A stretch of DNA of 64,000 nucleotides from Botryllus schlosseri (Eukaryota). Positions 18,684 to 18,838 of the stretch are shown here, one piece after another. The notes under the pieces are model-generated. The model searched no databases. It was not told the DNA's origin and saw only the letters and a list, made by a program, of their open reading frames with translations. The stretch covers positions 7,938,001-8,002,000 of the forward strand of contig CM119371.1 of assembly GCA_051294905.1 (NCBI GenBank), in the 5' to 3' direction. The first letter of the stretch is position 1, and every line of letters begins with the position of its first letter. The translations under genes and the position numbers were made by a program.

Positions 18684-18767
18684 TTTGATATGTCTGTAAT
18701 AAAATCGCAAAACAACTACGGCTCCTCATTCGTGTTCTAGTCAGATACAGCATCAATAGAAAAGTCG

Positions 18768-18838
18768 TGGAGACTACGGGAATTGAACCCGTATCTTCTA
18801 TTTGCAAGACAGATACTCTACCATTGAGCTAAGTCCCC
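18768..18838 (-). tRNA. trnA: tRNA-Ala(UGC) encoded inside the Polinton
   Basis: Folds by hand into a full cloverleaf: acceptor GGGGACT/AGTCTCC with G3:U70, D-stem GCTC/GAGT, anticodon stem TCTGT/ATAGA with loop CT-TGC-AA, T-arm ACGGG-TTCAATT-CCCGT, discriminator A; TTTT terminator 4 nt downstream. Confidence 0.93.

Follow-up and report, generated by a model that had tools for sequence, protein, structure and literature searches.

The 64,000-nucleotide (nt) stretch of the Botryllus schlosseri genome analysed here (assembly GCA_051294905.1, contig CM119371.1, positions 7,938,001 to 8,002,000 of the forward strand; hereafter the window) holds a Polinton/Maverick element that carries a tRNA-Ala(UGC) gene at 18768-18838 on the minus strand. 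By its fold, identity elements and promoter motifs, this 71-nt gene is a eukaryote-type tRNA gene with internal A- and B-box signals for RNA polymerase III (Pol III), and comparisons among Polinton copies indicate that purifying selection has maintained such genes in three or more diverged lineages of Polintons. With moderate confidence, we consider that tRNA-Ala(UGC) belongs to the Polinton's own inherited gene set and would act as a Pol III-transcribed, chargeable viral tRNA. A sequence-only reading of the window had proposed a Polinton-encoded tRNA-Ala(UGC) at 18760-18838, a span that comprises the minus-strand gene and its terminator.

ARAGORN reports a single tRNA in the window, a tRNA-Ala with anticodon TGC at 18767-18838 on the minus strand, and the Rfam model RF00005 matches 18838-18768 over model positions 1-71 with 73.4 bits (E 3.5e-14; gathering score 29), which is on par with the top cellular tRNAs of the same genome (74.6-76.9 bits). 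The minimum-energy fold is likewise a cloverleaf (-22.8 kcal/mol, z -2.85), and 3 of 200 shuffled sequences fold equally well. Alanine identity is defined by G3:U70, A73, and an NGC anticodon; here the acceptor stem reads GGGGACU/AGUCUCC and includes G3:U70, the discriminator is A73, and the anticodon lies at 18804-18806. The variable loop in family A, the Polinton family of the window, has 4 nt. Both promoter elements are recognizable by the usual Pol III consensus: the A box TAGCTCAATGG (tRNA positions 8-19) at 18821-18831 and the B box GGTTCAATTCC at 18779-18789, both on the minus strand, with only positions 15/16 of the A box varying across Polinton lineages. A TTTT run at 18760-18763 (minus strand), 4 nt past A73, is a candidate Pol III terminator, and host tRNA-Ala genes of the same genome also end in T4-T7 runs. 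Because the 3' flank reads CGACTTTTC, no CCA is encoded. Thus the complete cloverleaf, the UGC anticodon in agreement with the alanine identity elements, both boxes, the terminator, and the lack of an encoded CCA, all part of the sequence-only reading, were recovered.

The tRNA gene is located 2 kb from the right end of the element, in its right accessory arm. Directly upstream on the same strand is an intron-less gene for a ubiquitin-conjugating enzyme (E2; 18949-19428, minus strand; Pfam PF00179, E 4.3e-47), while the tRNA terminator faces the 3' end of the final plus-strand gene, an open reading frame (ORF) of 113 amino acids (aa) at 18342-18683, to which the tRNA is antisense at a distance of 84 nt. 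A plus-strand AATAAA occurs at 18698-18703, downstream of the ORF ending at 18683, and minus-strand AATAAA motifs occur at 18875-18880 and 18882-18887, downstream of the E2 ORF ending at 18949. The convergent polyadenylation (polyA) signals that had been described around the tRNA are therefore present as motifs on both strands.

The element that bears the tRNA is, by its termini and gene content, a complete Polinton/Maverick of 19,311 bp (1523-20833, plus strand), with termini reading AG..CT. An inverted-repeat search placed its terminal inverted repeat (TIR) regions at 1523-1814 (left, plus strand) and 20395-20833 (right, minus strand); within them, the arms 1523-1736 and 20620-20833 are 100% complementary over 214 nt, and a second pair, 1748-1814 and 20395-20461, is 96% complementary. 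A 6-bp target-site duplication (TSD), CAGGGT, flanks the element at 1517-1522 and 20834-20839. In addition to the TIRs and the TSD, the element encodes an rve integrase with a C-terminal chromodomain (12291-13295, plus strand; PF00665, E 8.8e-13; PF00385, E 3.8e-11) and a polymerase ORF of 1288 aa (6885-10751, plus strand). The polymerase assignment comes from homologues, of which there are 345 at E<=1e-5, with PF03175 in most of the best 120 of the 345, while the ORF itself had no Pfam match at E<=1. A 425-aa ORF at 15423-16700 (plus strand) is a putative double-jelly-roll major capsid protein. It matches PF21738 weakly (E 0.029), and its nearest Atlas clusters have PF21738 in 14%-24% of their members, which makes the assignment a lead and not proof.

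To count copies, the whole 495-Mb assembly was searched with a 121-nt query containing the tRNA and its flanks. The query matched 26 places, all of which were scored: 13 belong to family A (9 at 100% identity and 4 at 94%-98%), and the other 13 match the tRNA part only. The family-A capsid gene has 14 genomic copies with 96%-100% nt identity, and the tRNA accompanies 13 of the 14, in keeping with its description as Polinton-encoded. The copy that lacks it, on C22, is rearranged such that the position equivalent to 17983 of the window is joined to an inverted left arm, and this rearrangement accounts for the absence of both the tRNA and the E2 gene. This copy (G000:C22:307517-324716; L067) continues with the inverted left arm from 2439 back to 1816, is followed by the terminal repeat, and has a perfect 6-bp duplication, GACCGC. 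Both ends could be read for 10 family-A copies; 9 of these have their own perfect 6-bp TSD, all different, and the exception is on C5. Nine different duplications indicate that the element took the tRNA along in many separate integrations. Decay does occur in old integrated copies, as seen in a C:C mismatch at pair 6:67 (L013) and a TTT run in place of TTTT (L012 and L013). Two further family-A copies (G000:C1:36368576-36398391 and G000:C3:8186913-8216823) measure about 29.8 kb between the terminal repeats versus about 19.3 kb, with capsid matches that are interrupted; an insertion of about 10 kb is probable in each.

All 13 places that match only the tRNA part of the query are tRNA-Ala(UGC) sequences with 82%-86% identity. 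We considered whether they were host genes and rejected this, as each one is located 2-3 kb downstream of a Polinton capsid gene. Twelve of them belong to family B, whose capsid gene is 79% identical to that of family A in nt and 87% in aa, and in which all 12 copies carry tRNA-Ala(UGC) 2 kb downstream of the capsid gene. The remaining one belongs to lineage C and lies 3 kb downstream of a capsid gene about 70% identical in aa. A tRNA-Pro(UGG) is found nearby in 12 of these 13 family-B and lineage-C loci. The scan of other Polintons that the sequence-only reading had proposed was thus made inside this genome and detected tRNAs in family B and in one lineage-C copy; in the 5 kb that follow the capsid gene, no tRNA was found in either of 2 other family-C copies or in either of 2 copies from more distant families (capsid identity 34%-36%).

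The arrangement around these tRNAs differs among lineages. On the minus strand, the order in family A is ORF108, E2, tRNA-Ala, and then the convergent 113-aa ORF, and that in family B is ORF125, tRNA-Ala, E2, tRNA-Pro, and then a convergent 105-aa ORF; the 113-aa ORF has a homologue in family B (L014 345-662). In lineage C, the order is an inhibitor of apoptosis (IAP) with three BIR domains on the plus strand, tRNA-Ala on the minus strand, and tRNA-Pro on the plus strand. Each of the three lineages has a tRNA in antisense orientation immediately past its last plus-strand ORF, with gaps of 84 nt (A), 51 nt (B), and 35 nt (C). One family-A copy, on C9, harbors an extra tRNA-Pro(UGG) of the B type (G000:C9:5684434-5684508; L109 735-809; 98.7% identical over 79 nt), flanked by the left terminal repeat and the Death-domain gene, a sign that the families exchange tRNA cassettes.

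Several comparisons address selection on the Polinton tRNA. A comparison of families A and B gives 86% identity for the tRNA; for the capsid gene, it gives 79% over all nt, 54% over third positions, and 40% (58/144) over four-fold sites. The 5' flanks of the two tRNA-Ala genes cannot be aligned. The difference between 86% in the tRNA and 40% at four-fold capsid sites indicates strong purifying selection. Within family A, the tRNA differs at 8 of 852 positions (0.9%) versus 1133 of 35068 (3.2%) in the flanking 3 kb, a 3.4-fold lower value, and one copy has 0 of 71 differences in the tRNA versus 9.3% in its flanks; these within-family figures do not amount to a formal test, since the copies are related, and the flanks are largely coding and hence constrained themselves. 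Stem pairing is kept in 94.6% of 168 cells across 8 distinct Polinton variants. In three stem pairs both partners have changed, and lineage C accounts for two of these, in its T stem. In slid controls, 38%-58% of cells are paired with 0-1 double-changed pairs, and among 500 shuffles, 14 attain a covariation as high as that observed. All 8 variants have G3:U70 (alignment pair 3-69). Positions 15 and 48, which form a tertiary pair in tRNA, co-vary as A:U in family A and G:C in family B. The acceptor stem, G3:U70, A73, and positions 32-36 of the anticodon loop, none of which belongs to the Pol III boxes, are conserved as well; this favours a genuine tRNA over a simple decoy or an insulator that requires only the boxes.

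The Polinton tRNA-Ala genes also differ from those of the host. Pattern searches identified 11 UGC, 15 CGC, and 39 AGC host-type tRNA-Ala genes, which are clustered, and these counts are lower bounds set by the search patterns; the UGC/CGC search returned 51 matches, of which 25 are Polinton-borne. Polinton tRNA-Ala sequences are 82%-88% identical to one another and 62%-76% identical to host UGC/CGC genes, a comparison that the sequence-only reading had also suggested, and their GC content is 45%-57% versus 61%-68% in host tRNA-Ala. These gaps in identity and GC content suggest that Polinton tRNA-Ala forms its own lineage, inherited from the common ancestor of A, B, and C. By these measures it is a distinct lineage and no recent capture from the tRNA genes of this genome. 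In number, Polinton-borne tRNA-Ala(UGC) loci (26: 13 in A, 12 in B, and 1 in C) exceed the 11 host-type loci, and 13 Polinton-borne tRNA-Pro(UGG) loci compare with 15 host-type loci.

The host genes themselves seem to be packed head to tail, as in 3 of the 5 host tRNA-Ala loci that were fetched (L059, L060, and L061) the T arm and 3' end of an apparent other tRNA (GGTTCGAATCCC...) lies about 15 nt ahead or less. Dense host arrays were seen elsewhere in the assembly: a tandem array with 47 tRNA-Pro pattern matches in 146 kb (G000:C1:30654245-30800424), tRNA-Ala(AGC) copies with a period of about 150 bp (G000:C10:15355033-15357652), and a concentration of high-scoring tRNAs (G000:C3:34488226-34508096).

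From the gene and its signals, its place in a mobile element, its conservation, and its covariation, we infer transcription, charging, and a benefit to the element, which could proceed as follows. Host TFIIIC, TFIIIB, and Pol III would transcribe the Polinton tRNA-Ala and terminate at the TTTT run, host RNases P and Z and the CCA-adding enzyme would mature the transcript, and the host alanyl-tRNA synthetase would charge it via G3:U70 and A73. The charged tRNA would decode GCA (and GCG), and the supply of tRNA reading these codons could be raised or buffered while the element genome is amplified. Each time the element integrates, the gene moves with it. For a tRNA that is fully canonical, complete in its identity elements, and under selection, the most straightforward interpretation is a function as a tRNA, and it is possible that it buffers the element against tRNA shortage or a tRNA-directed defence.

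Codon usage was compared with a sample of 9 host genes only (4 HSP70 and 5 tubulin). The GC content at third codon positions is 0.39 in element genes versus 0.50-0.51 in the host genes, and GCA makes up 26%-32% of alanine codons in the element versus 15%-20% in the host genes. GCA usage, which the sequence-only reading had asked to compare between virus and host, is thus higher in the element. The shift is a general one, and the explanation by compensation did not hold up well: the codon boxes of Thr, Val, Leu, and Ser, which have no matching tRNA in the element, move toward A-ending codons in a similar way, and CCA is lower in the element (19%-26%) than in the host genes (32%-33%). As the shift is not specific to alanine and is reversed for CCA, codon compensation as the reason for tRNA-Ala and tRNA-Pro is weakly supported at best. 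These codon data count against a chargeable tRNA that serves translation, and further points bear on this reading. The host is already equipped with 11 UGC and 39 AGC tRNA-Ala genes (by pattern). Family-B tRNA-Ala is mismatched at 6:67 in all copies, and family A has A46 together with the 4-nt variable loop. PolyA RNA-seq depth is zero over the tRNA (18705-18851), an uninformative value given that polyA libraries miss tRNAs. Recombination between families, as witnessed by the B-type tRNA-Pro in a family-A copy, means that part of the similarity between A and B tRNAs could postdate the divergence of their capsid genes. Finally, the tRNA at the convergent junction is Ala in A and C and Pro in B; with the position kept and the identity varying, a position-dependent role in cis fits at least as well.

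In such a cis-acting role, the bound complex of TFIIIC, TFIIIB, and Pol III, and not the RNA, would matter, serving as a roadblock or insulator at the meeting point of the rightward gene block and the leftward accessory genes. It could limit read-through, transcriptional interference, and antisense or double-stranded RNA, or shield the integrated element from spreading heterochromatin. The recurrence of an antisense tRNA after the last plus-strand ORF in all three lineages, with the spot kept and the tRNA identity not, its place between the AATAAA motifs of convergent genes in the window, and the chromodomain of the integrase are consistent with this role, and tRNA genes and TFIIIC sites are described as chromatin barriers in the accessible text of PMC2040200 and PMC12409998. 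However, a role limited to the boxes would not conserve the acceptor stem, G3:U70, A73, the anticodon loop, and compensatory pairing; the second tRNA of family B (Ala) is retained away from the convergent junction, and the pattern is based on three lineages only. We regard a cis-acting Pol III unit as rather unlikely yet a serious rival, and favour a working tRNA over it; the two roles are not exclusive and can coexist. A neutral passenger, namely a host tRNA gene captured once and dragged along without function, appears quite improbable. The accessory arms of Polintons commonly capture cargo, and old integrated copies do acquire damage (the 6:67 mismatch and the shortened T run), but neutrality is difficult to reconcile with 86% identity between A and B tRNAs against 40% at four-fold sites, 3.4-fold lower divergence than the flanks in family A, compensatory stem changes, and retention in 13 of 14 A copies, 12 of 12 B copies, and one lineage-C copy.

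The tRNA gene could also yield an RNA that does not decode. Adenovirus virus-associated (VA) RNA is a structured non-tRNA molecule of about 160 nt without tRNA identity elements. An abundant transcript from replicating genomes, or its halves and fragments, might act as a regulator, such as a VA-RNA-like sensor decoy, a 5' tRNA-Ala half that represses translation, or a cytochrome c-binding RNA that counters apoptosis. The accessory-arm neighbours agree with this proposal in being cell-death genes (the caspase-domain gene, with E2 adjoining, and Death and BIR genes in the left arm), as do a Bcl-2-like ORF in family B and the three-BIR IAP of lineage C. In addition, the portions of the literature available to us report that tRNA binds cytochrome c and impedes the apoptosome (PMC12958161) and that a host tRNA serves a poxvirus as an assembly chaperone (PMC12618233). 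Nevertheless, the sequence is in no respect unlike that of an ordinary chargeable tRNA and has 71 nt versus about 160 nt in a VA-like hairpin, and a decoy would not need an anticodon conserved as UGC (or UGG for Pro) across lineages. A non-decoding RNA thus seems improbable, and a complete 71-nt tRNA falls outside the VA-RNA-like class. The least probable alternative, to which we assign almost no weight, is that the tRNA is foreign to the element's gene set and represents a host tRNA gene or a tRNA-derived short interspersed element (SINE) inserted in, or overrun by, one copy. A rough first look at the genome gave 36,083 tRNA-like candidates, which suggests abundant tRNA-derived repeats. This reading is refuted by the same position and flanks in 13 independently integrated copies, the lack of a TSD or tail around the tRNA, and only 26 genome-wide matches, all within Polintons. 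For the same reasons (26 matches in Polintons, no tail, and no flanking repeat), a tRNA-derived SINE was rejected as a class; the sequence-only reading had named a match to a high-copy SINE and absence from sister elements as grounds for doubt, and the searches yielded no such SINE and did find tRNAs in the sister elements. A remnant of a tRNA used as an att site was rejected as well, considering that the tRNA is full-length and 2 kb inside the element and that the integration sites are unrelated 6-mers. Of the three roles that had been put forward at the outset (translation support, a VA-like decoy, or an insulator), conservation beyond the boxes narrows the choice toward a real tRNA without settling it.

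A broader possibility, which we raise only tentatively, is that this clade of animal Polintons has retained its diverged tRNA-Ala(UGC) and tRNA-Pro(UGG) as working viral factors at the junction of two transcription blocks, within an arm of genes for cell-death control. Upon replication, the tRNA genes would keep convergent transcription apart and at the same time supply the cell with large amounts of virus-specific tRNA. If true, the virus-specific tRNA could sustain translation, or blunt apoptosis or a tRNA-targeting defence, and the genes would represent a tRNA-stage counterpart of the Pol III VA RNA genes in related adenoviruses. As a by-product, viral copies make up about 70% (26/37) of the tRNA-Ala(UGC) loci detected in the germline.

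Virus-encoded tRNAs are established for phages and giant viruses. Like some of these viruses, the Polinton is more AT-rich than host coding sequence and its U34 tRNAs read A-ending codons, but its codon skew is general and runs the wrong way for Pro, and its tRNAs are eukaryotic Pol III genes with internal promoters. Codon compensation was proposed for phage and giant-virus tRNAs by Bailly-Bechet et al. 2007, as cited in PMC12220804. In its accessible text, the latter study reports 558 tRNA genes, found by cmscan in about 8300 genomes of polinton-like viruses (PLVs) and virophages, as well as a conserved tRNA-His, seven in one cryptophyte PLV cluster, and suggests that they compensate for codon usage or counter tRNA depletion. 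As in the PLVs and virophages described there, the present case concerns a small (about 20 kb) Preplasmiviricota-type element with one or few tRNA genes conserved within a related cluster. Unlike those PLVs, it concerns an animal host and a classical Polinton/Maverick with pPolB, rve integrase, TIRs, and 6-bp TSD; the tRNAs are Ala(UGC) and Pro(UGG), reside in an accessory arm with apoptosis genes, and are supported by selection quantified against synonymous divergence. Starrett et al. 2021 (PMC8502044), in the part available, flag predicted tRNA genes in 'MELD viruses with other replicases' and note Bcl2 and IAP homologues in adintoviruses. Those mid-size linear double-stranded DNA (dsDNA) viruses, which are related to adintoviruses, are thus also drawn with tRNA genes, although the flags concern elements with other replicases and not adintoviruses with PolB and integrase, and they amount to a single mention without analysis. 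A barrier role in the Polinton would resemble the tRNA-gene barriers and TFIIIC insulators of PMC2040200 and PMC12409998 in that a tRNA gene lies between differently regulated or convergent units; the barriers covered in the accessible text are cellular loci, whereas that of the Polinton is suggested by position only.

The sequence-only reading had known of no standard description of tRNAs in Polintons. This stands for animal Polintons proper, and has to be qualified by the tRNAs of PLVs, virophages, and some MELD viruses: in the full-text literature accessible to our search, which did not extend to the founding paper of Kapitonov and Jurka 2006 or to tables S11/S12 of PMC12220804 (possibly with animal elements), no tRNA genes are described for animal Polintons/Mavericks. 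Given the tRNAs of polinton-like viruses of protists, the Polinton tRNA-Ala belongs to a known kind. As far as we found, the extension of virus-encoded tRNAs to a classical, recently mobile animal Polinton is new, and it adds evidence of long-term purifying selection and of a conserved position within the element.

Adenoviruses are considered relatives of Polintons, and their VA RNAs, together with the TMERs of gammaherpesviruses, are Pol III genes with A and B boxes in nuclear dsDNA viruses that do not yield chargeable tRNAs. Unlike these, the Polinton gene is a complete tRNA in which the anticodon and alanine identity elements are conserved across lineages. A Pol III gene in an adenovirus relative may provide a concrete lead on the possible origin of VA-type genes. 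There are also practical consequences. As Polinton-borne copies exceed (Ala) or nearly equal (Pro) host copies, tRNA gene counts, codon-adaptation measures of the tRNA adaptation index (tAI) type, and 'tRNA gene family expansions' would be distorted unless such cargo is recognized. About 20 of 72 positions distinguish the Polinton tRNA-Ala from the host isoacceptor, with the D-loop AAUGG, the anticodon stem UCUGU/AUAGA, and the 4-nt variable loop as diagnostic features, and tRNA sequencing can therefore separate the two.

Further genes of the element were assigned as follows. On the plus strand, an A32-like packaging ATPase is encoded at 10780-11400 (PF04665, E 2.2e-9), and a putative adenain-type (C5) maturation protease at 16697-17158 is suggested by Atlas neighbours, the nearest clusters of which have PF00770 in 27%-38% of members and are assigned to Preplasmiviricota; this is a lead, and the ORF has no Pfam match of its own. 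The few named homologues of the polymerase are from molluscs, and a sequence search of the PDB with the polymerase found nothing. Accessory genes with a predicted link to cell death include a caspase-domain (C14) gene (17516-18256, plus strand; PF00656, E 1e-12), a Death-domain gene (1826-2143, plus strand; PF00531, E 2.9e-10), and a BIR (IAP-like) gene (3513-3866, minus strand; PF00653, E 5.7e-11), the latter two in the left arm. The caspase-domain ORF retains GHG and QCYSG motifs, which we take to be the sites of the catalytic His and Cys. In the sister elements, a family-B ORF with NWGR and GGW motifs (L014 1934-2452, minus strand) was judged Bcl-2-like by eye, and the 397-aa ORF of lineage C (L026 273-1466, plus strand) was judged by eye to be the three-BIR IAP. 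Elsewhere in the window, a 555-aa ORF at 27691-29358 (minus strand) with a reverse transcriptase domain (PF00078, E 2.5e-13) and a weak zinc knuckle belongs to a retroelement unrelated to the tRNA.

Relatives were also sought in collections without other animal genomes. A viral contig collection contained no relative of the capsid protein, and tblastn of the capsid against a phage collection found nothing. The anticodon-arm motif specific to the Polinton tRNA was found at 2 loci in viral contigs, both of them phage tRNA arrays, and at 17 loci in metagenome contigs, of which 0 had full-length tRNA similarity and 0 encoded any of 16 element proteins by tblastn.

PolyA RNA-seq read counts on the window were 0 in run X18, 126 in X21, and 8 in X23, and the structural genes had no polyA reads in the part of the runs that was read. 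Almost all X21 reads fall on the E2 region (18852-19586), where 114 of the 126 fit partly and continue into unlike sequence, and 8 X21 reads skip 19153-19283 (131 nt; ends CT..AC, or GT..AG on the minus strand). The E2-region reads may come from a paralogous E2 gene of the host or of another element. In runs under four coded organism names (A-D), 65%-93% of sampled words of 16700-19500 are present, and a contig from organism A (X1; contig type guessed) spans the tRNA with no difference inside it.

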